Sequence record: OM864357.1
DNA length: 42,949 nt
Strand: one strand, 5' to 3'
Source: Escherichia phage ZH5
The notes under the pieces are model-generated. The model made no database searches and was not told where the DNA came from. It saw only the letters and a program-made list of their open reading frames with translations. Position 1 is the stretch's first letter. The number at the start of each line of letters is the position of its first letter. This document shows, piece by piece, positions 20,616 through 42,676 of the stretch. Position numbers and translations under genes: made by a program.

Positions 20616-22211
20616 TTGGACTATAAAAAGACATTAGCGGAACTGTTCCTGGGGGACCAGGATGCTGGCGTACTGGATGCGTCAGAGAAGTTTGCTGAGT
20701 GGACGCTGCCTACAATCTTTACCCGAGAGCTCTACACTGATGGGCGGCGTATGCAGCTTAGTCGAGACTATCAGAGTACAGGTGCTCAGCTGGTCAATAC
20801 AGCAGCGACTAAAATTGTAGGTGCGTTATTCCCGCAAGGTACCAGCTTCTTTCGGTTCTCTAAGAGTGCAGCCCTTGACAACTTTATTAGTAGTCTGGGA
20901 AGTTCTAGCACTGCGGAATCCCGTTTATCCGAGGTAGAGAACACCGCCTCTCAGAAGGTGTTTGAGAAGGATGGGTATGCTGCTAAGCTTCAAGCTGTGA
21001 AGTTGCTGCTTATCACCGGGAACGCATTGGAGTATATCGATGAAAGAACCGGGAAATCCATTATCTACTCGGTCCGTAACTTTACCGTTCGAAGGGACGG
21101 TAGCGGGAACGTGCTGCGACTCATTATCAAAGAGCGCGCCAGCATCCAGGACCTCCCAGAAGACATTCAAAAAGCACACTACAATGGTCGAGACCCATAC
21201 AGCGACATTGATATCTACACTGCCGCTTGTCGTAAGATTAAGCACCTTCCAAATGGAGAGGAAGCAGTAAGCTATGAGGTGTATCAAGAAGTTGATGGCC
21301 GTCGCCTAGGTGAGAGCAGCACCTACCCTGAGCTGGAACTTCCGTATAACGTATTGGTGTGGAACCTAGTTAACGGTGAGCACTACGGACGCGGTCTGGT
21401 GGAAGACTATGCGGGTGACTTTGCGCGACTGTCTGTGCTGACCGAAGCGTTGACCAACTACGAGATTGAGGCTTCCCGCCTTATCCCTATGGTTGATGCT
21501 AGTTCTGGACTGGATGTGGACGAGTTCTCTCAAGCCGAGACTGGTGAGGCAGTACAGGTTGGCGGTGGTGGTAGTAATGGTAACACCAAGTCCCCTGTAA
21601 CAGCTTACGAGGGTGGTGCAGCTCAGAAGATTCAGTGGATTGCCAGTGACATTCAGATGCTTGAGCAGAAACTGGCTCGTGCATTTATGTACACCGGCAA
21701 TGCTCGACAGGGTGAGCGTGTAACTGCTTATGAGATTCGTCAGAATGCTAAAGAGGCAGAGTATGCTATGGGTGGTGGATTCAGCATCCTCAGTGACTCC
21801 TGGCTGCGTAAGCTCGCGTACCTGTATACTATCGTGGCATATCCTAAGTTCAAGGTGTATCTCACCGAGGGCGTAGTGGATATCAACGTGATGGTAGGTA
21901 CTGCAGCACTAGCTAAAGCAGCAGCAGCAGATAAACTGCTAGAAGCTACCCAGGCTATGCAGCTGGCTATTCCTGTGCTCAAACAGCTTACTCCTCGCTT
22001 TAATGAGGATGCCTGCGTAGATTGGTACTTGGATGCATACGGTATTGTAAGTGGACCGTTCATGCTCACAGAAGAGCAACTGCAAGAGAAGCAGCAAGTT
22101 CAAGATAATGCAGCGGCGGCATCGGCAGCACAAGCACAGTCGCAGGTACAAGATCTCCAGGCAGCGGATCCTACTGTAGCAGGACAACAACTAGGCCTGT
22201 TACCGGGCTAA
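20616..22211 (+). CDS. Head-tail connector (portal) protein
   Basis: 531 aa, the size and position of T7 gp8; TTG start with AGGAGG 5 nt upstream. Confidence 0.75.
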   Translation: MDYKKTLAELFLGDQDAGVLDASEKFAEWTLPTIFTRELYTDGRRMQLSRDYQSTGAQLVNTAATKIVGALFPQGTSFFRFSKSAALDNFISSLGSSSTAESRLSEVENTASQKVFEKDGYAAKLQAVKLLLITGNALEYIDERTGKSIIYSVRNFTVRRDGSGNVLRLIIKERASIQDLPEDIQKAHYNGRDPYSDIDIYTAACRKIKHLPNGEEAVSYEVYQEVDGRRLGESSTYPELELPYNVLVWNLVNGEHYGRGLVEDYAGDFARLSVLTEALTNYEIEASRLIPMVDASSGLDVDEFSQAETGEAVQVGGGGSNGNTKSPVTAYEGGAAQKIQWIASDIQMLEQKLARAFMYTGNARQGERVTAYEIRQNAKEAEYAMGGGFSILSDSWLRKLAYLYTIVAYPKFKVYLTEGVVDINVMVGTAALAKAAAADKLLEATQAMQLAIPVLKQLTPRFNEDACVDWYLDAYGIVSGPFMLTEEQLQEKQQVQDNAAAASAAQAQSQVQDLQAADPTVAGQQLGLLPG

Positions 22212-22225
22212 CAACAGAGGTATAA

Positions 22226-23098
22226 ATGGACGGCGTAGAAACCACTCAAACTAACGTAACAACTACCCAGGTAGAGAACCAAGGCGGCCCTAAGATTCCG
22301 GGCCTGGGCGCTCCTCTTAACGCCCCAAATAATCAGGGTGTGCAGGATGCGCAGATCTCTATGCAGCAGCAACAGGGCAAAGATTCCCCTGCATCTGCAG
22401 TAGTTCCACCAGCAGCTCCAGCACAGATTCCTCTGGATATCGAAGCCCTAAAAGCGGCCCTTAATGACAAGGGTGGCGAAAGCGCCAAAGAGCAGCCTCA
22501 GGAGCTAGCCCAAACAGGCAACCCGACAATTGATGCCGGTGTAGCAATGTTGAAGCAAGTCTCTGGGTTAACTGACTCGGACATGGTGCGGGCACTTAGT
22601 AAGGCCCTGGAGTATCAGGACCCTAACCTAATCGATACAGCCTTCATCAAGGAGCGCTTCGGTGAGCACGCTGCGTATGCAGAGCTGCTGGCTAAGGCGT
22701 ATCTTGAAGACCAGGTGGGACAAGCCACTAAGGCTGTACAGGAAGCGTATGACCTCGTAGGCGGGAAGGAGAATTGGGAGGTAGCAGCGCAGCTATTTAA
22801 TTCCAAGGCTCCAGAGCCTCTGCGTAAGGCTGCACGAGTCCTAGCTGATTCTGGTGAGCTTAAACAGGCAGCAGAGTTGGTGGCAGGTTACTGCCGTGAT
22901 ATGGGTCTTATCAAGACCTCAAATCCATTGGTACGTGGTGTCCCTGGCAACAATGCCTTGTCCGCTGCGGACTTCAAAGTAGAGTATGCTAAACTGCGTC
23001 AGGAGGCAGGGAACCGAAGCCTGGAATCTCAACAGTTCAGTCAACGTTATCACGATTTACTCGCACGCCGTGAAGCCGGTAAACGCGTAGGTCTTTAA
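22226..23098 (+). CDS. Capsid assembly scaffolding protein
   Basis: 290 aa, acidic, Ala/Gln-rich and predicted helical; lies between portal and capsid genes. Confidence 0.65.
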   Translation: MDGVETTQTNVTTTQVENQGGPKIPGLGAPLNAPNNQGVQDAQISMQQQQGKDSPASAVVPPAAPAQIPLDIEALKAALNDKGGESAKEQPQELAQTGNPTIDAGVAMLKQVSGLTDSDMVRALSKALEYQDPNLIDTAFIKERFGEHAAYAELLAKAYLEDQVGQATKAVQEAYDLVGGKENWEVAAQLFNSKAPEPLRKAARVLADSGELKQAAELVAGYCRDMGLIKTSNPLVRGVPGNNALSAADFKVEYAKLRQEAGNRSLESQQFSQRYHDLLARREAGKRVGL

Positions 23099-23110
23099 TA
23101 TCATTTAACT

Positions 23111-23587
23111 ATGGAGGTAAACCTCTTGAAAGAAATTGCAGCGCGCTATACTTATACTCCTGAGGGTCGTCTAGTTAGTAAAGTCACTGGAAGTTACGGG
23201 GACACCTACATCAATAACTGGGGTTATCGCCGAGTTACTTGGGACAGGGGAAAGCTTGGGCGGGTACGTGAGTATGCCCACCGCTTGGTGTGGTTTATGC
23301 ACTACGGGGATATACCAGAGGGTTTAATGGTAGACCATATCAACCTAGACAGGTGTGATAATCGCATTGAGAATCTACGGCTAGTAGACAAATCTGGGAA
23401 TGCCCAAAACTCTAAATGGAGAGGGTGCTTCTGGGATAAGCGGGAGGGCAAATGGCGCGCAGCTATTAAGTTAAATGGGAAAACGAAGCACCTCGGGTAT
23501 TTTGACTGCGAGCAAGCAGCACGGGATGCCTATCTAGTAGCAAAATCTGAGATGCACGAGTATGCGTCTATTCATGTACTTAAATAA
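23111..23587 (+). CDS. HNH homing endonuclease with AP2-like DNA-binding domain
   Basis: VDHINLDRCDNRIENLRLV HNH motif plus a C-terminal AP2-like segment; inserted between scaffold and capsid genes. Confidence 0.8.
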   Translation: MEVNLLKEIAARYTYTPEGRLVSKVTGSYGDTYINNWGYRRVTWDRGKLGRVREYAHRLVWFMHYGDIPEGLMVDHINLDRCDNRIENLRLVDKSGNAQNSKWRGCFWDKREGKWRAAIKLNGKTKHLGYFDCEQAARDAYLVAKSEMHEYASIHVLK

Positions 23588-23599
23588 AGGAAATTAAAT

Positions 23600-24619
23600 A
23601 TGGCTGATACCATTTATAAGGCAGGGGATACAAGAGCACACTGGGGCGGCGCGGCGTCCGACGTCGATATTCACCTGGAAGTGTACCAGAACGAAGTGGA
23701 CACCCGCTTCCAGTACCAGGCGCTGTTCCTAGGCCTCTCTAGCCAGCGCTCTATCAGCGGCTCTAACACCTACCGTATCGACCGCCTGAATACCTCTGCG
23801 GTGAAGGGTCGTCGTTCTGGTGAAGCGCTGGATAGCACTCCGGTCCGTAACGATAAGATGATTATCGTGGTGGATACGGTGCTGTACATCCGTAACCCAA
23901 TCGACTACCAGGACGACTGGACTGGTCCGGACTTCCTCTCTGAGATGGGTCAGAACAACGGTTCCGAATTCGCGGAGACCTTCGACCAGGCGCACCTGAT
24001 TCAGCTCATCAAGGGCCGTTCCTGGGTTGCACCAGAGCACCTGAAGCCTGCGTTCAACGACGGTATCGAAGTAGGTGCCTCTATCCTCGTAGCGGGTAAC
24101 ACTCCGGATAAGCAGCTGACTCAGGCTGAGATGGAAGCCAACGCCATGAACATCAACCTGGCTCACAAGGCTGGTATCGATGAACTCATCAAGCGTAAGA
24201 CCCCTCTGATGGATATGATTACTCTGGTGGACGTGGATACCTACTCCCGACTGCTGGAGCATCCGAAGCTGTTAAATCTCGAGTTCGGCGCGACTAACGA
24301 CGATGGCTATAAGAATCGCCGGGTTGTGAAGATGAACGGTGTGCCGGTAGTAGAGTGCACTGAGTTCCCGACCGAAGCTGGTACGCACCCGCTGGGTTCG
24401 GCTTACACCGTTACCGCGGATGATGCGAAGTGCCGCATGGTAACTTTCAGCAAGTCCAAGACCCTGGTGACGGTAGAGGCTAAGCCGTTCACTTCTCGTA
24501 TCTGGGATGACCAGCGCGAGTTCAACAACGTTCTGGACTGCTACGCGATGTACAACATCGGCCTGCGTCGTCCGGATACAGCGGCAGTGACTAAGTTCAC
24601 CTTCACCACTAAAATCTGA
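23600..24619 (+). CDS. Major capsid protein
   Basis: 339 aa; AAGGA RBS; position after the scaffold gene and before a strong terminator, as in T7-like late operons. Confidence 0.75.
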   Translation: MADTIYKAGDTRAHWGGAASDVDIHLEVYQNEVDTRFQYQALFLGLSSQRSISGSNTYRIDRLNTSAVKGRRSGEALDSTPVRNDKMIIVVDTVLYIRNPIDYQDDWTGPDFLSEMGQNNGSEFAETFDQAHLIQLIKGRSWVAPEHLKPAFNDGIEVGASILVAGNTPDKQLTQAEMEANAMNINLAHKAGIDELIKRKTPLMDMITLVDVDTYSRLLEHPKLLNLEFGATNDDGYKNRRVVKMNGVPVVECTEFPTEAGTHPLGSAYTVTADDAKCRMVTFSKSKTLVTVEAKPFTSRIWDDQREFNNVLDCYAMYNIGLRRPDTAAVTKFTFTTKI

Positions 24620-24828: not shown

Positions 24829-24833
24829 TATGC

Positions 24834-24869
24834 GCCCCTGGTGCCTTCGGGTGCCGGGGGCTTTTTTTT
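24834..24869 (+). terminator. Rho-independent terminator
   Basis: 12-bp GC-rich stem (gcccctggtgcc / ttcg / ggtgccgggggc, with G-U pairs) followed by T8. Confidence 0.8.
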
Positions 24870-24914
24870 GTCCCTGTCTTAAGGGTCCTAGGGGTCTTTA
24901 ATAGAGGAACAAAT

Positions 24915-31195: not shown

Positions 31196-34100
31196 ATGGC
31201 TCAGTTTCTGAACCGAGAACCGAATCCACAGGAAAAGGATTCTGCTAAGGGCGCAACACTTAAACCTGCGCCTGCGCGTATAGATTGGAACGATGCGGGT
31301 GACGACGGCTTAAACGCACTGGAGCGTGCCTCCTTACTAGCACAAGCCAAGACACCTGCTACTACAGCTGCAGAGAGCTTTGCTTCTGGTATGGGCAACA
31401 GTATCATCGCCGCAGCTATCCGTAAAGCCTCTTCCCCAGCATTCGTCCCAGAGCAGGGGTTTGATGCTAAGAAACAACTAAGCACCGACTCCCGGGTTAA
31501 GTTGTATACTCCCAACCAGGAAGAGATTGATTACTTACATGGAGCAGTGTCTCTAGAGGACTATAACTACCGTATACAGCAGATGCTTGATCAGCGTCAT
31601 CGCGATCGCTTAATGGCTGACAACACAATAGCTGGGTTCGCTGGTGCCATAGCAGGTGACTCCCCATTTCCCCTAGCTCCGATGTCTGCGGCAGGTATCG
31701 CTGGTCGGGCTGGCTTAGCAGTACGCACTGCTATCCGCGCAGCGGATGTAGGTACGGCTGTTTATGCACAGGACCAACTGGGTCAGTCTGCGGCAGTTAC
31801 TGCTCTTGTAGCAGGTGTAGCTGGTCTAGACCAACTCTGGGATATCCGTAGAGCAGTGCGCGCGTCTACAGTAGCTGCCTCAACTACAAGAACTGCTGAG
31901 ACCGCACCTAATACTGCTACGGCAACTTCCCGCACTGCTCCGGAAGAAGTAGCAACAAGTCGCAATGGGGTAGATTCCCCTGCTGGCCCGTTTAATGCGC
32001 AAGCTGATAGTGCCGCGGCTGCTAAAACCACTGACGGTTTACCAGAAGGTTTAAGCTTGAACGTGCTGGATGATGTAGAGCACCACGCTTACTCTGGTGT
32101 ACGTGTACCCGGTATAGAGGTAGAAGTAAATCGCGGAGATAAGTTGGTTGGTGTTGTGCAGGCTTATCGTGTAGGTGATGATTTACAAGTAGCACATGCC
32201 TGGGTTGATAAATCCCTGCGTGGCAAGGGAGTAGGCGCGAGCATGTACAAAGCACTAGTTAAGCGCGCTACTGATGCAGGGTATGGCAACTTGTTGTCTG
32301 ATAGCTCAGTAACTGCGTCTGCTCAGCAGATGTGGCGCAAACTTGGTGCTACAAAAACCAAAGATTTTAAAGAACTAACGGACGGTATTGAAGGGCAGCG
32401 TTATGCGGTCTCTGCGGATGAAAAGTCCCCACTCTTTACTTTAGACTTGAAACGTCCTGTGTTTGACCCAGATGCGCCTACAACTCGTACAGCGAGGGAT
32501 GTTAATGTTACAGGAGTAGGAGAGGGGGAAGAAATCCTCACCAAAGCACTGGATGAACCGATAAAAGTCCTTAGAAACAACACTACTACTGTTAACATTA
32601 AAGCGCAGGACGTAGTTCGATTCCTAAAGACCTCTGAGCATTTATCTAAGGGTCAGAAGGCTATCCTGGACACCTTGGGCGATGCAGTACAGGACATTGA
32701 TTTTAAGTTGGTGGCAGGCTCTTCTAACCGTAGCCACTACAGCTTTCCACTGGTATCAAGAACTGATAGAGGTTTTATATCTTTACGTGCCCCTAAGAAA
32801 GCTAATGGAAGTACTTGGACAACTGTAGGTGACGCCCTACGCGCCATGGACGCCGATACTAGTCGAGTAGCAGTGCACGAGCTGATTCACGCTGCCACTA
32901 CTAGGGCCCTTAAGCGGAATCCTGAAATTGCTAGTAAGCTGGAAGAGGTGCGCGCTGCAATAGCAGCTGATTCAACCCTCAGTGATAAGCTTAAGTACTA
33001 CGCAAGCGATGTGCACGAGATGTTAGCTGGACTAGGTGATAGCCCTGAGTGGGTGGAATATCTCTCCAGAACTCAATCCCCTACCGGTAAGAGTATGCTC
33101 CGCCAGATTGGTGAGTATATCATGAATGCCCTTGGGATCCGTACTAAAGGCTCCGCTTTGGAGGACGTACTAGATGCGTATGAAGATGCTGTCAAGTGGA
33201 CTGCAAAAGACTACGCAGAACAAGTTCAGAGCTTCCGCAGCGAATCCTTCCAGGACCTAGCGGGTACATCGGTTAAGAATGAGGCCCTGAAAGCTCAGAC
33301 TATGATGGACACGGCCAAGCGTAAGTTAGCCACTATGTTCTCCCTGTATGATAACATCGCAGAGGGTAGTGAGGACCTGGCACGCTTATTAGTATCTGAT
33401 GCTACTGCTGTAGGCGGTCGTAAACCGTCTGTGGTGGACTTCAAGCGTAACCTTACGTTGGAGATGGATGCTAGTGCCAGTGTAGTTGAGGACGCTATAC
33501 TTGGTGCCCTCAAGGCCAAAGGTGTAGGTTTCATAGACCGCTTCTTCCACCGTAGCAACTTCCGAGCAGCTCGTGCTGACTTAGAAGGTCGCTTGGGCCG
33601 TTACCTGGACTCTGCGTACAGTGCTGAGGTTAATGGACGCCCTGTACCTCTGCCGGACTCTGACTTGGTTCCGCTAGTAGAGGCATACCGCAACTCCGGC
33701 TGGGCCAGTAAGTGGCACGATCACATGACTGCTGCCGGACTGGTGGATGACGGTACTCTGATTAAATCGGACTATTACTTCCCTCGCCAGTACAGTTACG
33801 ATAAGATGCGCCAAGGTATTGCAAACGGTCGCTCCCTGGATAATTATCGGGATCTGTTCCGTCAGGCACTGCGTGATGTGTATCCATCTATGGAGCCTGA
33901 GGTTGTTCAGCGCGTCGCTAAGGAAATGGTTGATGGTATCTACAACGGACGCTCCTCGGCCTCTGGTCCTATGTGGAAGCAACTCATCAATGGTATGGGT
34001 AATGATGAAGTAGTTATGGCCATGCGTAATGCTGGCGTAGACGAGAGTGCAATCCAGAGTTTCTTGGCAGGTAATGTCCGAGAATCTGGCGCTACCTCGC

Positions 34101-35458
34101 CTGCTAAGAACCTCCGTCAACGTACCCGCTTCAACATGGACAAAGAGTACATCGTAGATGGTCAGGTTATGCGCATGCAGGATCTGATGGATACTGACGT
34201 AGCCAAGGTTATGCATGGTTATACTAACCGAATGTCAGGTCGTGTAGGTATGGCTTACGCCGGAGTCTCTGACCTAAAAACACTAGAGACGATGATTAAT
34301 GAGTCCAAACACGCTCTGGCCGACCCTGGGAAGTGGGAGAAGACCGTTAATGACACCATCGACTTTATCTTAGGTGGGGCACCAGCCGACGCCGGGCAGA
34401 TGCCGGACCTGCTCCGTGCAGCCGGTAACATGGCCAACGCTACCATGCTTAAGAACTCTGGGTTGTACCAGCTTACTGACACCGCTCTAGCGCTGAAAGA
34501 GTTTGGTATGTCCCGAGTACTTCGCAGTATGCGTGAGCAGCCTTGGTTTAAAGAAGGTTCTGTAGCTATTCGCACTCCGGATATGGCTAGTCGTCTGGAT
34601 GCAATCCTACGTGGTAGTATCCAGAAGGAGATGCGCTTCCGCTGGTTGAATACGTACGCCGACGATAACCTGGACTTGACCCGTCAAGCCTCTTGGTTCA
34701 ACGTCACCCAGAACGTTGGGCAGGCTGCACGTCACGTCAACGGTATGAGCATGGTGCATCGGCTGCAAGTTAACCTGAACTCAGGTATTGTAGCGGATGA
34801 GCTCCAGCAGATGTTCAAGGGCGACGCTGAGGCGTTTAAGCGTCTGGAACGTTTCGGTCTTACTCGTGAAATCGCTGACCGGGCTATTGCTGCTAACAAA
34901 GCTAATCCTGGTGCTATGTTCCAGCCGGACCTGCAAATGCAAGTTGAGGTGGTAGGGACGCGTATGATGGACTATTTGGTGCAGCAAGTACGTACCGGTG
35001 AGACCTCGCACTTCGCCCAGTTCAACCCTATCGGCAAAGTAATTGTCGGCTATCAGAGCTTCGCCCTGGCTGCCACCAACAAGATTCTGCGCCGCGAGTT
35101 GAATGATGCCGGGTGGATTGGGGTTGCACACATCATGGCATACCAGTTCCCATTGATGCTTCTAGCAACTATGGCGAAGCACGGTATGGACGGCAAAGAG
35201 GCCGATACTCAGAAGCTTATCGCTGAGTCGGTTATGGGTATGAGTGCCATCGGTGGTATCTCGCTTCTGCAGGATATCTTCACTGGGGACTCTCCGCGTC
35301 ATTCTCTGGCGTCTATGGGCTACGTCACCGGGCTGTTGGGTGCGGTGCAAGCCCTGGCTACTGGGGATATGGATATCCAGACCTTCACTAAGCAGGTCCC
35401 GTTAATCCAGGAATTTGCACCTACGCGGGCTATCATCAATAACTTCGGAGACGATTAA
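31196..35458 (+). CDS. Internal virion protein C (largest ejection/core protein) with an embedded GNAT-like signature
   Basis: 1420 aa; AGGAG RBS; N-terminal Ala-rich low-complexity region; LRGKGVGASMYKAL (GNAT motif A-like) at about 32211-32243; HELIH at 32876-32890. Confidence 0.75.
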   Translation: MAQFLNREPNPQEKDSAKGATLKPAPARIDWNDAGDDGLNALERASLLAQAKTPATTAAESFASGMGNSIIAAAIRKASSPAFVPEQGFDAKKQLSTDSRVKLYTPNQEEIDYLHGAVSLEDYNYRIQQMLDQRHRDRLMADNTIAGFAGAIAGDSPFPLAPMSAAGIAGRAGLAVRTAIRAADVGTAVYAQDQLGQSAAVTALVAGVAGLDQLWDIRRAVRASTVAASTTRTAETAPNTATATSRTAPEEVATSRNGVDSPAGPFNAQADSAAAAKTTDGLPEGLSLNVLDDVEHHAYSGVRVPGIEVEVNRGDKLVGVVQAYRVGDDLQVAHAWVDKSLRGKGVGASMYKALVKRATDAGYGNLLSDSSVTASAQQMWRKLGATKTKDFKELTDGIEGQRYAVSADEKSPLFTLDLKRPVFDPDAPTTRTARDVNVTGVGEGEEILTKALDEPIKVLRNNTTTVNIKAQDVVRFLKTSEHLSKGQKAILDTLGDAVQDIDFKLVAGSSNRSHYSFPLVSRTDRGFISLRAPKKANGSTWTTVGDALRAMDADTSRVAVHELIHAATTRALKRNPEIASKLEEVRAAIAADSTLSDKLKYYASDVHEMLAGLGDSPEWVEYLSRTQSPTGKSMLRQIGEYIMNALGIRTKGSALEDVLDAYEDAVKWTAKDYAEQVQSFRSESFQDLAGTSVKNEALKAQTMMDTAKRKLATMFSLYDNIAEGSEDLARLLVSDATAVGGRKPSVVDFKRNLTLEMDASASVVEDAILGALKAKGVGFIDRFFHRSNFRAARADLEGRLGRYLDSAYSAEVNGRPVPLPDSDLVPLVEAYRNSGWASKWHDHMTAAGLVDDGTLIKSDYYFPRQYSYDKMRQGIANGRSLDNYRDLFRQALRDVYPSMEPEVVQRVAKEMVDGIYNGRSSASGPMWKQLINGMGNDEVVMAMRNAGVDESAIQSFLAGNVRESGATSPAKNLRQRTRFNMDKEYIVDGQVMRMQDLMDTDVAKVMHGYTNRMSGRVGMAYAGVSDLKTLETMINESKHALADPGKWEKTVNDTIDFILGGAPADAGQMPDLLRAAGNMANATMLKNSGLYQLTDTALALKEFGMSRVLRSMREQPWFKEGSVAIRTPDMASRLDAILRGSIQKEMRFRWLNTYADDNLDLTRQASWFNVTQNVGQAARHVNGMSMVHRLQVNLNSGIVADELQQMFKGDAEAFKRLERFGLTREIADRAIAANKANPGAMFQPDLQMQVEVVGTRMMDYLVQQVRTGETSHFAQFNPIGKVIVGYQSFALAATNKILRRELNDAGWIGVAHIMAYQFPLMLLATMAKHGMDGKEADTQKLIAESVMGMSAIGGISLLQDIFTGDSPRHSLASMGYVTGLLGAVQALATGDMDIQTFTKQVPLIQEFAPTRAIINNFGDD

Positions 35459-35459
35459 T

Positions 35460-35948
35460 ATGGCTGAGGAGAATAGGGCCACAGTGGTCTATGATGAGAC
35501 CAGCCCCAGTGGGTTGCGGTACGTAGCCAGCAGGTTTAAGTCTAGAGTAGGAGCCCCTGCGGGGGCCTTAAACTCCAAGGGCTATTATGACCTACGCTCT
35601 GCGCCTACTGGGTGTAACTCTAGGATGGCGCACGCTGTTTTGTGGGAACTACACAACGGGGGCATTCCAGAGGGGTTTGAAGTTGACCACATTGATGGCA
35701 ATCCAAGTAACAACCGAATAGAGAATCTACGTTTGGCTACCCGTTCTTTGCAGGCCTTTAACCGGGGAACACGAACCGACAAGCGCTCAGGTCTACCTAA
35801 AGGCGTATTCGTTAACGGTACAGGATTTATGGGGCGGACGTCTCGGGATGGTGTTCGTATATCTAAGACTTTTAGCACTGTAGAGGAAGCTGCCGCCTGG
35901 GTTGCCGAGGCCCGTAAAGTCTCGGCTGGGGCCTGGGTGCGTAGCTAA
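35460..35948 (+). CDS. HNH homing endonuclease with AP2-like domain (second copy)
   Basis: VDHIDGNPSNNRIENLRLAT HNH motif; ATG 35460 directly after the upstream TAA. Track ORF begins at 35415 inside the previous gene. Confidence 0.75.
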   Translation: MAEENRATVVYDETSPSGLRYVASRFKSRVGAPAGALNSKGYYDLRSAPTGCNSRMAHAVLWELHNGGIPEGFEVDHIDGNPSNNRIENLRLATRSLQAFNRGTRTDKRSGLPKGVFVNGTGFMGRTSRDGVRISKTFSTVEEAAAWVAEARKVSAGAWVRS

Positions 35949-36969
35949 GGAGGTCATCATAGCTTACTCATGGCAAGAACAAATCAAGCCAGCTGGTACC
36001 CAGGATATCCAGTGCGATATTGAGTATTTGGACAAGTCCTATATTCATGTATACCTAGACGGTGTGGAAACCACTGGGTACACCTGGACCAGCGCTACCA
36101 ATATAAGGCTGAATTCGGCCCTAACGGCGAGCACTACAGTGCTTCTCATTCGTAAGACTGAGCGCGAGTATCTGTATATTGAGTTTACTAGCGGCTCTCC
36201 GTTCATCGAGGTGAACGTAGACTCTCAAAATACACAGTTCTTGCACTTGGCGCAAGAGCTTGTGGAAGGCAGGGCTATCCCCGGATTCTACGGGGATATA
36301 AGCATGAACGGGTACCGCATCACGAATGTATCAGACCCGGTGGGCTTGCAAGATGCTGCTACCAAGCACTACGTAGACGTCGGGGATGCTAGACTAGACT
36401 CTCGTATTGATGCAGAACACGCCGCCTGGGTATCCGCTGATGCCGCCATCAAATCCTACGTTGTTTCTGAGGACGCCAGGCTAGACACCCGCATCGACAC
36501 AGAACGCGCCGCCAGGAAGGCTGCGGACGATGCCTTGAGTGTGCGTACCTCCGCTCTGGAAAACACCTTTATAAGTGGTGTAGAAACAGTAAGCTACCCG
36601 TGGAGCACGGTGCTTACAGAGGATACAGACGAGGTAACTCCAGGGCTAAAGTTTACTAAGGCTATAGTAGAACTTAATGGTGTTGGGCAGATTCGTGGCT
36701 ATAGTTTCGAGATTGTAGATAATACCATAATGTTTGCCGAGACTCTCCCTGCAGGAACGATCGTAGCTGCTCGATTAGGTGCTGATGTAACTGCAGGGGA
36801 TGGCTTCGCTACACAAGCATCTGTAGACCACTTAGCCAACTCATTAGGGGCTTTGGCGTACCTAGGCAAAGCAGAGGCTGTGGAGGATGCAACCGGTGCT
36901 GAGGACGTAGTGAATCAACTAAATGCATTACTAGCAGCACTACGTGCCAGCGGAGTAATAACATCCTAA
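35902..36969 (+). CDS. Tail fibre protein with T7 gp17-like N-terminal adaptor domain (start codon uncertain)
   Basis: CDIEYLDKSYIHVYLDGV... aligns by eye with the T7 gp17 N-terminus (NIPFEYLARKFVVVTLIGV). ORF open from TTG 35902; a TAAGGAGG RBS at 35946-35953 is followed in frame only by ATC/ATA. Confidence 0.7.
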   Translation: MPRPVKSRLGPGCVAKEVIIAYSWQEQIKPAGTQDIQCDIEYLDKSYIHVYLDGVETTGYTWTSATNIRLNSALTASTTVLLIRKTEREYLYIEFTSGSPFIEVNVDSQNTQFLHLAQELVEGRAIPGFYGDISMNGYRITNVSDPVGLQDAATKHYVDVGDARLDSRIDAEHAAWVSADAAIKSYVVSEDARLDTRIDTERAARKAADDALSVRTSALENTFISGVETVSYPWSTVLTEDTDEVTPGLKFTKAIVELNGVGQIRGYSFEIVDNTIMFAETLPAGTIVAARLGADVTAGDGFATQASVDHLANSLGALAYLGKAEAVEDATGAEDVVNQLNALLAALRASGVITS

Positions 36970-36981
36970 CAGGAGGATCAT

Positions 36982-37284
36982 ATGGCAGGGGCGGCTAAAC
37001 GCAGCCGTCTCTCGGAGCTGCATCGCATGTTCACAGAGGCTTTGATTGAAGAGATCAAACAGTCTAAAGAAGATGAGGTGCCGCTCCCGGCCGCAGATAA
37101 GTCAGTCATTGCTAAGTTCTTGAAGGATAATGATATCACTGCGGATGCAGATTCCGAGGAGATGCAGGACCTTCGTGACGAATTCGATGATGAACTAGCG
37201 GCGCGCAGAGAGGCGCGTAAACAAGAAATTTTAGGTAAGATTAGTGGATCTGACTCTGAGGACTTACTAGAAGGAATTGTCTAA
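36982..37284 (+). CDS. Terminase small subunit (DNA maturase A)
   Basis: 100 aa, acidic, directly upstream of the large terminase; AGGAGG RBS. Confidence 0.65.
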   Translation: MAGAAKRSRLSELHRMFTEALIEEIKQSKEDEVPLPAADKSVIAKFLKDNDITADADSEEMQDLRDEFDDELAARREARKQEILGKISGSDSEDLLEGIV

Positions 37285-39140
37285 TGGTATCGGTGAAGAC
37301 TGCGCGAAGACTGCGCATGCTCAACCAGAAACTTACTGGTTATAGTGTGAATCCGCGCAGTATTCCCAAAGAGGAGCGCGAGGATATCGCCATGATGATG
37401 GCGGCTACCCTCAGTAATTTCAGGGAATTCGCATACATCGGTATGCGTTTCCTAGGCTTTACGCTCACGGATATGCAAGCTGACATTGCAGAGTATATGC
37501 AGAAGGGCCCTAGGAAGCGCATGGTGGCCGCACAGCGTGGTGAGGCTAAATCTACACTGGCCGCGCTGTATGCTGTCTGGAGGCTCATCCAGGACCAATC
37601 CTGTCGTATACTGATTGTGTCTGGGGCGGAGAAGCAGGCGTCCGACGTTGCGAACTTAATCATTCGTATGCTGGAAACCTGGCCTCTGTTGTGCTACTTG
37701 AAGGCTGATCCTACTCGTGGGGATCGTACTTCATTCGAAGGTTATGATGTCAACTGCGACCTTAAACCTCTGGATAAGTCTGCTAGTGTAGCCTGTGTAG
37801 GTATCACTGCATCGCTGCAGGGTAAGCGTGCTGACCTCTTGATTCCAGATGATATTGAGACCACCAAGAACGGTTTGACACAAACCCAGCGTGAGCAGTT
37901 GCTGATGATTTCGAAAGACTTCGCAGCTATCTGTACACATGGGGATACACTGTACCTGGGTACACCGCAGACCAAGGACAGTATTTATAAAACCCTGCCG
38001 GGGCGTGGCTTCGAGGTGCGGGTATGGCCTGGACGCATCCCGTCAGTTGAAATGGAAGAACGATATGGAAGTACACTTGCTCCTTATATACTGCAGCTCA
38101 TTGAGCGGGGTTATAAACGCACCGGGTTCGGAGTAGATGGGACACTAGGTGAGAGCACCGACACCGGTCGTTATGATGAGGATGCGCTGATTGAGAAGGA
38201 GCTGGACTTCGGCCCAGAGGGCTTCCAGCTGCAGTACATGCTCGACACGACCTTGTCTGATCAGATGCGCACCCGTATTAAGCTGTCGGATATGCTTGTG
38301 TATTCCGGTAGCCTAGATTCCTCGCCTGAGACCTTCTCCTACATTGCGGACCGCCGGTACTTGTACCAGCACGAGCATGAGGGGATTATGGGTCAGCAGA
38401 TGTACTTCCCAGCATTCTATGGGGATATGCATCTACCGTATCAGCATAAGGTGCTAGTAGTGGATCCAGCAGGTTGTGGTGGGGATGAAGTGTCCTATGC
38501 TGCTGGTGGGGCTGCAAACTCATATATTCACTTGTTCTCCGTTGGGGGTTTCCAAGGAGGCGTAAGCACTGAGAATATCGATAAGCTCATTGATTTGTGC
38601 GTAGAGTTGGATATCTCTGACATGGTGGTGGAGAGTAACATGGGGCACGGTACTGTGTCTATGTTGATTCTGAACCGCCTGAGGGAGCGTCGCCTTGCCG
38701 GTATCGGTGTACGCGATATCAACAACACCACGCAGAAAGAGCGTCGTATTATTGACACAATCAGTCCTGTAACTCGACGACACCGCTTAGTGGTACATGA
38801 GCGTGCTATTCAAGATGATATTGGGACTTGTATGCTCTACTCCCGAGACCGTCGATGGCTGTACTCTGCGTTTGCACAGCTCGCAGGTATTACGTATGAT
38901 CGGGGAAGTCTAGCGAAGGATGACCGAGCAGACGCCATTGCTATGATGGTGGCAGTGCTGAACGGGCACCTGGTAGAAGATGAGAAAGTAGTAGCTGAGC
39001 GTGAGTCCGAGAAGATGGCCCTGGCCTTCATTGAGAACCCACTGGATTGGGCACAGAGTAAATTGTCTAAGGGACTTCGCGGTGTAGCGGCTCGGTTGCA
39101 GAACCGTGGCAGAGGTAAACAACATAGAGGAAGAAGATAA
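37284..39140 (+). CDS. Terminase large subunit (DNA maturase B)
   Basis: 618 aa; Walker A-like GAEKQAS/LIVSG region and VLVVDPAGCGGDE nuclease-domain motif; T7 gp19-like size and position. Confidence 0.8.
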   Translation: MVSVKTARRLRMLNQKLTGYSVNPRSIPKEEREDIAMMMAATLSNFREFAYIGMRFLGFTLTDMQADIAEYMQKGPRKRMVAAQRGEAKSTLAALYAVWRLIQDQSCRILIVSGAEKQASDVANLIIRMLETWPLLCYLKADPTRGDRTSFEGYDVNCDLKPLDKSASVACVGITASLQGKRADLLIPDDIETTKNGLTQTQREQLLMISKDFAAICTHGDTLYLGTPQTKDSIYKTLPGRGFEVRVWPGRIPSVEMEERYGSTLAPYILQLIERGYKRTGFGVDGTLGESTDTGRYDEDALIEKELDFGPEGFQLQYMLDTTLSDQMRTRIKLSDMLVYSGSLDSSPETFSYIADRRYLYQHEHEGIMGQQMYFPAFYGDMHLPYQHKVLVVDPAGCGGDEVSYAAGGAANSYIHLFSVGGFQGGVSTENIDKLIDLCVELDISDMVVESNMGHGTVSMLILNRLRERRLAGIGVRDINNTTQKERRIIDTISPVTRRHRLVVHERAIQDDIGTCMLYSRDRRWLYSAFAQLAGITYDRGSLAKDDRADAIAMMVAVLNGHLVEDEKVVAERESEKMALAFIENPLDWAQSKLSKGLRGVAARLQNRGRGKQHRGRR

Positions 39141-40948: not shown

Positions 40949-42676
40949 ATGAATCTAATTTCGTTAGTAGATGTAAGTTCAAGGCAGGTACAGAACTCCT
41001 TACTTACAGTAAATACAGTTGCCGAGTTGCGTAATATCCAAGCTAAGGCAGGTCAACGCGTTCGTTGGTTAGGATATTTTAACCTCAACGATGGTGGTGG
41101 TAATACAGGATATGTTACCGCAGGTCCACTTACTGCGGATAACGGGAGTGTGTTCCTGCTTAATAATGGAATGTACGTACGTGCAGTGTTTGAGTCTAAA
41201 GTAGACCCGCTTCAGTTCGGCGTCTCAGGAAGTAATACCTCTGCGGACAATAAGATACGGTTTGACCGTATGGTTAGTTATTGTCTCAATACAAAGACCG
41301 CTATTGAATATTCTCGTAGTATGGACTACCAGTGTGACCCGGTGCGCATTAGCGGTGCCTCTGCGGACTTCTTTAGTATTACTGCTCCGCGAGCAAGTGT
41401 AACTCACCGCTGTCCTAGCGCATCAGACCACGCATTTATTCTGCAAGGTGCAGCTCCCGTAGCCCCAGCATCATACGATACGTTCCAGCATTGTACTGTA
41501 TCAGGGCTCAGGATTGTAAGTTCATTCAGCTGCATTTATACCCGCTATACAGAGAACTTGGTCATTGAGAAGTGCTTGTTCAGCGGCGGCTCATTAGGTG
41601 CAGCTACTGGCGTGGGGATAACTATGTCATACAATGGCCCACTGGAAACCGATATTAAGCCGAGAATAAGGAACTGTATATTTTCGTACTGCAAACACGC
41701 GATACTCGGACAAACAGCAGTAGCAGAGACGGACCGAGGCCGCGTAGCGGATGGGGTATTTGAAGACCTTGTGGCATTAAATTGCGGCGGCACTACCGGA
41801 GACTTTGTGTACCACTTACCTTACATGGATGGGGCCATACTGAACAAAGTAGAGGCATACCAGGATTCTTTTAACACTGTGGCCGCTAATGGTATTCTGC
41901 TACAAAAACCTACGTTAGTTAATCTGACAAACTGCAACATGTTTGGATTAGGTGGGTACGGGATACAACTACTCAGTCCTCGTGGTGTCTGCATAGATAG
42001 CACCAACACAATACAAGGGTGTGGTAAACAAGGAAACCGCACGGCACTTGTTGTGTCCAGCCTGTCGTCAAGTATTACCACTCAGAATGTGAAATTAAGC
42101 CCTAGAATTCGTGACTGTTACGGTAGTGCTGTGCAGATGCAAGGTGTCTCTAACATAGACCTTTCAGGTTTAGAGGAGTACGGGAACTGCCGAGGTACCT
42201 CTAGTGCCGCTGGATGGTCCTTCCTGAACTGTCAGGGCGTGCGCCTGCATAATGTACGCGCAGACAGCGCAGGTACTGCCTTTCTGAACGTGGACGGGGG
42301 AAGTGTTGAACTGTTTAATCCCACGTTCCTACAGTACACCTCTCAGATATTACTGGCTAACTCGGCGACTGTCAGGGTACTTCCTGCTGAGCGTATTCTG
42401 CAAGTAAACGCAGCTACCTCTCCTGGCGGTATTGTAGATGAAGTACAGTATGACGCCAGTACAGGCTCAGCTATCGTCACCTTACCCAGCGCCAGTAGCT
42501 TCCCCGGTAAGGTTATTCGTATCATTAAGACTGATTCAACTTCTAATGGCATAGGTATCTTCCCGGCAGCGGGTCAATCTATTAATGGGGCAACCTCCTA
42601 CAGCCTTACTGCACAGTATTCGTTCGTGCAGCTGCGCAGTACAGGGTCTAACTGGTTAGTTATAGGTAAGTCCTGA
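40949..42676 (+). CDS. Tailspike protein, candidate polysaccharide depolymerase; lacks a gp17-like N-terminal anchor
   Basis: 575 aa, last gene before the right terminal repeat; Gly/Ser/Thr/Asn-rich periodic sequence consistent with a beta-helix; no T7 gp17-like N-terminus. Confidence 0.6.
   Translation: MNLISLVDVSSRQVQNSLLTVNTVAELRNIQAKAGQRVRWLGYFNLNDGGGNTGYVTAGPLTADNGSVFLLNNGMYVRAVFESKVDPLQFGVSGSNTSADNKIRFDRMVSYCLNTKTAIEYSRSMDYQCDPVRISGASADFFSITAPRASVTHRCPSASDHAFILQGAAPVAPASYDTFQHCTVSGLRIVSSFSCIYTRYTENLVIEKCLFSGGSLGAATGVGITMSYNGPLETDIKPRIRNCIFSYCKHAILGQTAVAETDRGRVADGVFEDLVALNCGGTTGDFVYHLPYMDGAILNKVEAYQDSFNTVAANGILLQKPTLVNLTNCNMFGLGGYGIQLLSPRGVCIDSTNTIQGCGKQGNRTALVVSSLSSSITTQNVKLSPRIRDCYGSAVQMQGVSNIDLSGLEEYGNCRGTSSAAGWSFLNCQGVRLHNVRADSAGTAFLNVDGGSVELFNPTFLQYTSQILLANSATVRVLPAERILQVNAATSPGGIVDEVQYDASTGSAIVTLPSASSFPGKVIRIIKTDSTSNGIGIFPAAGQSINGATSYSLTAQYSFVQLRSTGSNWLVIGKS

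Follow-up and report, generated by a model that had tools for sequence, protein, structure and literature searches.

Two probable free-standing homing endonuclease genes of the I-HmuI-like HNH_3 family next to the capsid and tail-fibre genes of Escherichia phage ZH5

Escherichia phage ZH5 (sequence record OM864357.1; the whole stretch of 42,949 nucleotides (nt) is called the window in the following) encodes two HNH proteins, HNH1 and HNH2, which belong to the I-HmuI-like HNH_3 family. With good confidence, we regard their genes in this Drulisvirus-type phage as homing endonuclease genes of the free-standing kind. An earlier note on this DNA had described two paralogous open reading frames (ORFs) at 23111-23587 and 35460-35948. 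Both were found there on the plus strand (Table 1), and BLASTP confirmed their relatedness (41% identity across 91 amino acids (aa), E = 2e-16). The motif quoted in that note is indeed common to both proteins, albeit in a slightly different wording, namely MVDHINLDRCDNRIENLRL in HNH1 and EVDHIDGNPSNNRIENLRL in HNH2. A tblastn search of the window with both proteins gave no third HNH copy. As also described earlier, HNH1 lies between the scaffold and capsid genes and HNH2 between the genes of an ejection protein and the tail fibre; the PHROG assignments of the neighbours agree with this.

Both proteins matched the Pfam family HNH_3 (PF13392; gathering score 24.8) with 72.5 bits (E = 2.1e-20) for HNH1 and 72.8 bits (E = 1.7e-20) for HNH2 and, over their full length, the profile phrog_99 'HNH endonuclease' (5.8e-49 and 1.8e-40, respectively). 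NCBIfam gave no match for either protein, and Pfam found nothing in the isolated N-terminal parts of both or in the C-terminus of HNH2, even at E values up to 10. The sole solved relative found by sequence was I-HmuI (PDB 1U3E) in both cases. The same structure (1u3e_M) was the top Foldseek match in the PDB for the AlphaFold2 models of HNH1 (probability 1.00) and HNH2 (0.99), which were derived from alignments of 66 and 63 sequences and reached predicted local distance difference test (pLDDT) values of 94.4 and 87.1, respectively. As modelled, both proteins have a ββα-metal fold resembling that of I-HmuI.

The catalytic residues of I-HmuI, which nicks one strand (PMC3017599), are Asp74, His75 and Asn96 (PMC12724721). 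The earlier note had instead named a His-Asn-His set with zinc-binding Cys/His ligands, which is wrong for the I-HmuI-type subfamily: it is devoid of zinc ligands and its triad is Asp-His...Asn. HNH1 has this set in full, since its D75, H76, N88 and N97 align with D74, H75, N87 and N96 of I-HmuI; in an alignment of 66 sequences (A3), D75, H76 and N88 are invariant, and the N97 column holds Asn in at least 90% of the sequences. In HNH2, D76 and H77 are present, whereas the Asn96 equivalent is replaced by Gln98. This Gln was seen in every HNH2 orthologue examined, from four sub-lineages, save phi1_146024, which has Arg, and within the printed alignments it is confined to the HNH2 clade. Gln98 of HNH2 and N97 of HNH1 are both the fourth residue of the ββα helix in the AlphaFold2 models. 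In addition, the conserved His-Arg pair is altered in HNH2, with Ala in place of Arg59. With Gln98 at the Asn96 position, it is uncertain whether HNH2 is catalytically competent. A further natural active-site variant with an intact ORF was observed in a distant orthologue at the HNH1 site (57% identity; L072, IMG/VR contig 3300010266_000002), which reads VVGHKNGD for VDH and has Gly at the catalytic Asp.

The label 'HNH/AP2' introduced by the earlier note is fair for HNH1, whose C-terminus is likely an AP2 domain. Its Pfam AP2 scores stay below the gathering score of 33.3 (25.7 bits with the whole protein, 29.1 bits with the C-terminal fragment), a PDB sequence search matched it to the AP2 domain of WRINKLED1, and the model of this part, with three strands and a helix, was matched by Foldseek to the plant AP2 domains of TEM1 and ERF1 with probabilities of 0.97-1.00. 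Many homologues carry HNH_3 and AP2 (PF00847) together, a recognised homing endonuclease architecture (PMC10448857). For HNH2 the label is tentative: Pfam AP2 did not match even at E up to 10, and Foldseek returned only weak matches, to T. gondii mitoribosomal chains (0.57-0.92; their relation to AP2 was not checked) and to a P. falciparum AP2 domain (0.33). The C-terminal model of HNH2 has the same topology of three strands and a helix, and the region aligns with the AP2 region of HNH1 via phrog_99. The C-terminal DNA-binding modules of I-HmuI are helical and of the helix-turn-helix type, unlike the AP2-type module considered here.

Comparison with relatives that lack the genes, as the earlier note had proposed, revealed precise insertions. 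Relatives have or lack insert 1 as a whole, which lies between the stop codon of the scaffold gene and the ribosome binding site (RBS) of the capsid gene; in the empty allele, TATCATTTAA directly adjoins AAGGAAAGTAATACATG, the boundary being ambiguous by a few A residues. Insert 2, between the stop codon of the gp16-like ejection protein gene and the tail-fibre N-terminus, has ATGGC (35460-35464) at its left border and ATAGC (35959-35963) at its right, and its empty allele joins GACGATTAATATGGC to ATACAGCTGG. The empty-junction sequences of the two sites can also be written TATCATTTAAAAGGAAAGTAATACATGGCAGATACTATT... and GACGATTAATATGGCATACAGCTGGCAAGAG. All flanking genes are complete. The free-standing arrangement postulated earlier thus holds, with both nucleases encoded by ORFs of their own between intact structural genes, outside any intron or intein.

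Carriage was scored with a 1.6-kb query per locus against related GenBank phages. Carriers, which are the minority, gave a full-length match and contain an annotated HNH gene, whereas the majority of the relatives matched in two separate segments that cover 64-70% of the query, scaffold adjoining capsid or gp16 adjoining tail fibre; HNH1-less relatives cover exactly 70% (1124 nt) of the 1601-nt query. Of the 294 phages scored for HNH1, about 20 carry it, and of the 243 scored for HNH2, about 16 do so (about 7%). Among the IMG/VR loci, an HNH gene is found at site 1 in 17 of 80 (44-93% protein identity to HNH1, two of them frameshifted) and at site 2 in one of about 60. HNH1 occurs alone in phiHAO78-1, Kpp-9, IME308 and NNA-G4, HNH2 alone in SFN6B, KMI5 and xx20; pKP-M212-2.1 and the window have both, and Minorna and KPV811 neither. 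All four combinations of presence and absence occur, and the two inserts assort independently. The genes are absent from more than 90% of close relatives and are therefore not universal at these loci, which, together with the precise borders and the independent assortment, favours the earlier claim of insertion. The HNH1 locus shares 93.5% nucleotide identity with that of phiHAO78-1 across 1.6 kb, and the HNH2 protein is 98.8% identical to gp41 of SFN6B.

Both nuclease genes are under strong purifying selection, with ratios of non-synonymous to synonymous substitution rates (dN/dS) of 0.05-0.08 for HNH1 (dS 0.67-0.97) and 0.05-0.06 for HNH2 (dS above 1). Mobility is supported by the sporadic and precise indels, by a window that is Minorna-like on both sides of insert 1 except for a patch of about 55 nt directly downstream, and by the gap in divergence between HNH1 and its neighbour: compared with the carrier L012, nucleotide identity is 84% for HNH1 (dS 0.9) and 95.6% for the adjacent capsid gene, which fits nuclease lineages moving between genome backbones. 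Degenerate copies were found as well, in keeping with the cycle of invasion and decay that such elements are expected to undergo. HNH1 is frameshifted in the IMG/VR contigs L063 and L067 (1008-1488), and HNH2 is frameshifted in L175 (a 41-kb metagenome contig, 1501-2000) and has a premature stop in L176 (1209-1658). The region of HNH2 is itself a mosaic. The 3' end of the gp16 gene is Minorna-like (0-4 differences per 60 nt, versus 10-18 per 60 nt against SFN6B), HNH2 and the tail fibre are SFN6B-like (window 35960-36400), and the recombination boundary lies at most about 150 nt upstream of insert 2 (window 35160-35460). Sliding-window divergence was uninformative at this junction owing to a scattered gap in the MAFFT alignment, and direct alignments were used.

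The patch downstream of insert 1 covers the RBS, the start codon and the first 42 nt of the capsid gene. Against Minorna, KPV811 and SFN6B, these 42 nt contain 9-11 differences, of which 0-1 are non-synonymous, compared to 14-43 differences in the other 978 nt. The contrast is strongest for Minorna, with 11 differences (10 synonymous) in the first 42 nt and 14 in the remainder (Fisher p = 4.3e-10; KPV811, 1.8e-6; SFN6B, 1.4e-4). No such spike is seen upstream of the insert, where the scaffold gene shows 0-4 differences per 60 nt to Minorna right up to the insert. The patch is common to other HNH1 carriers, and the changes linked most tightly to carriage are those in the spacer and at +6 and +12 of the capsid gene. 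The conversion tract at insert 1 would thus be one-sided and about 55 nt long, which suggests a cut site just inside the capsid gene or at the capsid RBS. These patterns suggest that the capsid recoding protects carriers, the patch being the predicted target and immunity region.

At the other locus, the earlier observation that the insertion coincides with an anomaly of the tail-fibre start proved correct, and insert 2 is its cause: the conserved N-terminus has no in-frame ATG, and ATA is found at 35959-35961. In about 60 empty alleles the tail-fibre gene starts with ATG (or GTG) GCA TWC AGC TGG, whereas ATA GCN TWY TCA TGG is present in 11 of 11 carrier alleles and in none of the empty ones. 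The carriers have thus lost the start codon, and the Ser codon has changed from AGC to TCA, with all three bases differing. These 11 alleles are from the window, seven GenBank phages (three sub-lineages) and three metagenome contigs, one of which represents a fourth sub-lineage. HNH2 itself starts with the former tail-fibre signals (GGAGACGATTAAT ATG GC...), and its stop codon overlaps a strong Shine-Dalgarno (SD) sequence in front of the ATA (Table 1). The spacer codons vary non-synonymously between lineages (KEVI, KGAT, KGAI), and a purine-rich SD sequence is present at proper spacing in every lineage. Alignments of the PHROG tail-fibre profiles begin at residue 2 of the protein started at ATA. 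In L175, a single inserted nucleotide brings a TAG into frame six codons before the ATA, leaving no canonical upstream start. On account of the SD sequence kept in all lineages, the point where the PHROG profiles begin and the TAG in L175, we consider initiation at ATA (AUA) the likeliest option, with a chance of about one half or slightly better.

An alternative start is the TTG at 35902 inside HNH2, from which the product would begin with MPRPVKSRLGPGCVAKEVII... / MPRPVKSRLGPG... The start anomaly accounts for the inconsistent annotation of the tail fibre in SFN6B-, KMI5- and xx20-like genomes: SFN6B RefSeq uses the upstream TTG in HNH2 (corresponding to 35902 here), the xx20 group an in-frame ATG 10 codons upstream, and KMI5 an internal start about 180 nt downstream. 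Fusion of HNH2 to the tail fibre by programmed frameshifting was rejected by inspection, as a slippery site is missing ahead of the TAA and the SD sequence lies downstream of the stop, not upstream. Less likely than not, and hence put forward tentatively, is the idea that HNH2 rewired translation at this locus. It would have taken the RBS and ATG of the tail fibre and left a whole clade of plaque-forming phages (SFN6B, KMI5, the xx20 group and the window genome) with an AUA tail-fibre start served by a near-perfect SD sequence overlapping the HNH2 stop. If so, the selfish gene would be entrenched, as its simple deletion would cripple tail-fibre synthesis, and this would explain the purifying selection on HNH2 despite its Gln98 active site.

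For HNH1, the start codon also deserves comment. The ATG at 23111 is replaced by ACG or CCG in most orthologues, and the start codon common to all of them is a TTG at 23126 (ATG in one lineage), with GGAGG on its 5' side. The 153 aa encoded from this TTG are the commonest length among the closest homologues, and the TTG is probably the true conserved start. The GGAGG can pair with CCUCU (23122-23126) directly before the TTG, giving a possible 5-bp hairpin, and divergent orthologues preserve the pairing as GGAGA...TCTC (G-C to A-T). This hairpin may occlude the RBS and keep nuclease expression low. RNA folds at three junctions were no more stable than shuffles (z 0.29 to -1.0), the value for the hairpin at the HNH1 SD sequence being 0.29.

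According to our proposal, the enzyme encoded by a carrier would, in a mixed infection, nick or cut the insert-free allele of a relative infecting the same cell, close to where an essential gene begins downstream (capsid in the case of HNH1, tail fibre in that of HNH2). Repair by recombination off the carrier genome would copy the nuclease gene and, with it, a short tract on its downstream side, and the mostly synonymous changes of this tract would make the carrier site resistant to cutting; immunity would come from a recoded or split site. HNH1 combines an N-terminal hairpin region, the Asp-His...Asn ββα-metal core and a likely C-terminal AP2-type DNA-binding domain, and is probably translated at a low level from its TTG. 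HNH2 has taken the original RBS and ATG of the tail fibre and supplies a new strong SD sequence across its own stop codon, and the tail fibre is most likely initiated at the AUA left at the old start position.

Several points weigh against this account. To judge from Gln98 and the Arg of one orthologue, HNH2 may be a weak or inactive nuclease. We found no cleavage, nicking or homing assay for either protein or a close orthologue; in the literature search, differences in homing endonucleases among Drulisviruses were met only as asides (PMC7013548), and no functional study was found. The linkage between HNH1 and the recoded capsid start is imperfect: the carriers L012 and L035 retain only the changes at +6, +12 and +18, the empty alleles L013 and L014 have the GATACAAGA segment too, and part of the patch may be ordinary mosaicism. 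As to the tail fibre, E. coli reporters with an AUA start reach only about 1-2% (range 0.02-3%) of the expression obtained with AUG (bioRxiv 10.1101/063800), most lineages have an in-frame start further upstream (TTG 35902 here, ATG in the xx20 group), and the TAG of L175 lies in a metagenome contig whose HNH2 is decayed. Changes at the 5' end of the tail-fibre gene are no denser than in the rest of the N-terminal domain (Fisher p = 0.055-0.6); as this is not significant, we claim no recoded patch for the tail fibre on density alone. Moreover, one insertion may be ancestral to all 11 carriers, and the association thus does not count as 11 independent events.

Another explanation, which we judge unlikely, is that HNH2, and perhaps HNH1, is a domesticated, or catalytically disabled, HNH protein kept for sequence-specific binding of DNA or RNA or by dependence of the phage, and not an active homing nuclease. 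The clade-wide Gln98 (one Arg) in place of the metal-ligand Asn and the Ala in place of Arg59 of the His-Arg pair point in this direction, yet Asp76-His77 and Asn89 are intact. A dN/dS of 0.05 at dS above 1 would be unusual for a purely selfish gene, but HNH1, whose active site is complete, is under equal purifying selection. As a variant of domestication, the 3' end of HNH2 holds the tail-fibre RBS and translation of HNH2 may couple to that of the tail fibre; with the tail-fibre ATG gone and the SD sequence overlapping the HNH2 stop, simple deletion would damage tail-fibre expression. The decayed copies in L175 and L176 keep this downstream layout, however, and the protein therefore appears dispensable; likewise, more than 90% of close relatives lack the gene and have kept the ancestral ATG, which argues that the lineage does not need HNH2.

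Two further readings were rejected. HNH proteins associated with packaging are well documented in phages (PMC5304195, PMC10448857), and HNH2 lies one gene upstream of the terminase genes (36982-39140), as might suit accessory factors of the HK97 gp74 / GVE2 HNH type that help terminase to cut concatemers. HNH1, on the other hand, is far from the terminase genes, and both proteins are I-HmuI-like, not GVE2-like, by sequence and fold. Distribution decided the matter, as more than 90% of the relatives have the same terminase and lack the HNH genes, which are thus not universal in position. In Skunavirus, the GVE2-like packaging HNH gene is found in every genome at one fixed position and the I-HmuI-like genes are variable (PMC12724721); HNH1 and HNH2 behave as the variable class. 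We consider a packaging role exceedingly improbable. Hardly less improbable is that the two genes are decaying, functionless relics of old insertions whose patchiness reflects repeated loss only. This was dismissed on dN/dS, since the degenerate copies in L063/L067 (HNH1) and in L175 and L176 (HNH2) stand against intact ORFs with values of 0.05-0.08 across dS from 0.7 to above 1. In addition, the HNH1 insert with its 55-nt patch in a near-Minorna backbone points to recent gain by recombination, not to ancestral retention.

Among known systems, I-HmuI and I-BasI of the Bacillus phages SPO1 and Bastille (1U3E) share with both window proteins the N-terminal β-hairpin region and the ββα-metal core. 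The catalytic Asp-His...Asn set of I-HmuI (PMC12724721) is the same in HNH1, whereas HNH2 differs by its Gln at the Asn96 position. I-HmuI, a nicking enzyme, is encoded in a group I intron of a DNA polymerase gene (PMC3017599), unlike the free-standing genes of the window. HNH-AP2 homing endonucleases of phages, cyanobacteria and protists (PMC10448857, citing Magnani et al. 2004) combine an N-terminal HNH with a C-terminal AP2 domain, a likeness that is clear for HNH1 and weak in its AP2 part for HNH2. HNH-3 and HNH-AP2 homing endonuclease genes cluster beside essential structural genes (PMC10448857). The IPA-HNH and HNH-3 genes of ICP1 are placed similarly to those in the window, beside essential or structural genes and at the boundaries of recombined segments, but the IPA-HNH domains are too divergent for the HNH_3 profile (PMC10448857), which the window proteins match strongly.

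The I-HmuI-like HNH genes of Skunavirus (PMC12724721) are likewise free-standing, vary in number and position and occur in the morphogenesis module as well. Distinct lineages share one site, truncated remnants are common, and the proteins cause marker exclusion against phages without them. They belong to another host and phage family, and a replaced start codon in a neighbouring gene was not seen among the findings reported for them. Drulisvirus orthologues at the same loci appear in GenBank as names only (SFN6B gp41; 'HNH endonuclease' in phiHAO78-1 and KMI5; 'HNH homing endonuclease' in xx20). By tblastn, relatives of HNH1 were found in 2637 and those of HNH2 in 1891 phage records, including genes annotated as T7 'putative NHN endonuclease', phage 13a gp3.8 and 'H-N-H-endonuclease F-TflVI'. 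Three points appear not to have been described previously, namely the one-sided synonymous recoding of the capsid start, the universal change from ATG to ATA, and the Asn to Gln variant under purifying selection. The finding is otherwise routine: the gene family that HNH1 and HNH2 join is very common in phages, and its members have already been annotated in related genomes.

The window is an essentially complete genome of a T7-supergroup podophage of the genus Drulisvirus (Autographiviridae, Slopekvirinae). Its 20-kb structural half matches 299 phage records, the majority from Klebsiella phages, and is 92-93% identical to Shigella phage SFN6B, Escherichia phages phiHAO78-1 and Minorna, and Klebsiella phage KPV811. 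PHROG profile scans of the window proteins gave the gene order portal, scaffold, HNH1, major capsid, tail tube proteins, internal virion proteins, HNH2, tail fibre and terminase subunits. The gp16-like protein has 1420 aa in the window and SFN6B, compared to 1232 aa in Minorna, KPV811 and phiHAO78-1. The extra region (aa 311-384) includes a GNAT acetyltransferase domain (Pfam Acetyltransf_1, 30.4 bits; gathering score 20.7), so that an ejected virion protein would contain an acetyltransferase. A 575-aa ORF at 40949-42676, located 3' of the lysis genes, contains a right-handed beta-helix region (Pfam Beta_helix, E = 2.4e-9) and has no PHROG match; its product is probably a tailspike or capsule depolymerase setting host range. 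A third HNH insertion site lies between a 65-aa ORF that follows the capsid gene and the gene of tail tubular protein A (window 24829-24914). It is empty in the window and filled by another HNH_3 paralogue in about 20 of 80 related IMG/VR loci, including SFN6B (L010, 2819-3265). A strong terminator-like hairpin with a T8 run follows the capsid module at 24834-24861 and is unrelated to either insert. Promoter and terminator scans near both inserts gave nothing above shuffled expectation.

Table 1. Positions of the two HNH genes, their inserts and neighbouring features in the window
Feature	Position	Strand	Details and evidence
Portal	20616-22211		PHROG
Head scaffolding protein	22226-23098		PHROG
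Insert 1	23109..23585	+	477 nt in the scaffold-capsid spacer; alignment A2 with HNH1-less SFN6B, Minorna and KPV811
HNH1 ORF	23111..23587	+	ATG...TAA; 158 aa from ATG
HNH1 translation signals	23113..23128	+	SD GGAGG 23113-23117; probable TTG start 23126-23128; orthologue start-codon comparison
HNH1 catalytic core	23333..23401	+	Asp75-His76 23333-23338; Asn88 23372-23374; Asn97 23399-23401; alignment to I-HmuI
HNH1 AP2-like putative DNA-binding domain	23414..23557	+	C-terminal, aa 102-149; sub-threshold Pfam, PDB sequence, Foldseek
HNH1-linked recoded patch	23588..23641	+	Capsid RBS, start codon and first 42 nt; divergence counts, Fisher test
Major head (capsid) protein	23600-24619		PHROG
Internal virion protein, gp16-like	31196-35458		Endolysin domain; PHROG
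HNH2 ORF	35460..35948	+	ATG...TAA; 162 aa
Insert 2	35465..35963	+	499 nt; alignment A1 with HNH2-less phiHAO78-1, Minorna and KPV811
HNH2 catalytic core	35685..35753	+	Asp76-His77 35685-35690; Asn89 35724-35726; Gln98 35751-35753 at the metal-ligand Asn position
HNH2 stop and tail-fibre signals	35946..35961	+	TAA overlapping strong SD TAAGGAGGT; 5-nt spacer; ATA at the ancestral tail-fibre start
Tail fibre, from conserved N-terminus	35959..36969	+	Pfam Phage_T7_tail 2.6e-17; PHROG
Small and large terminase genes	36982-39140		PHROG

Homing endonuclease genes are seen as drivers of mosaicism and of competition among co-infecting phages, and Drulisviruses are widely isolated for phage therapy against Klebsiella and E. 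coli. Each of the two loci offers a clean pair of alleles, one with and one without the insert, and the targets are predicted to lie at the 5' end of the capsid gene and of the tail-fibre gene. If the AUA start of the tail fibre is real, it would be a case of a selfish element altering the translation of an essential structural gene, and of natural, efficient AUA initiation in an enterobacterial phage.

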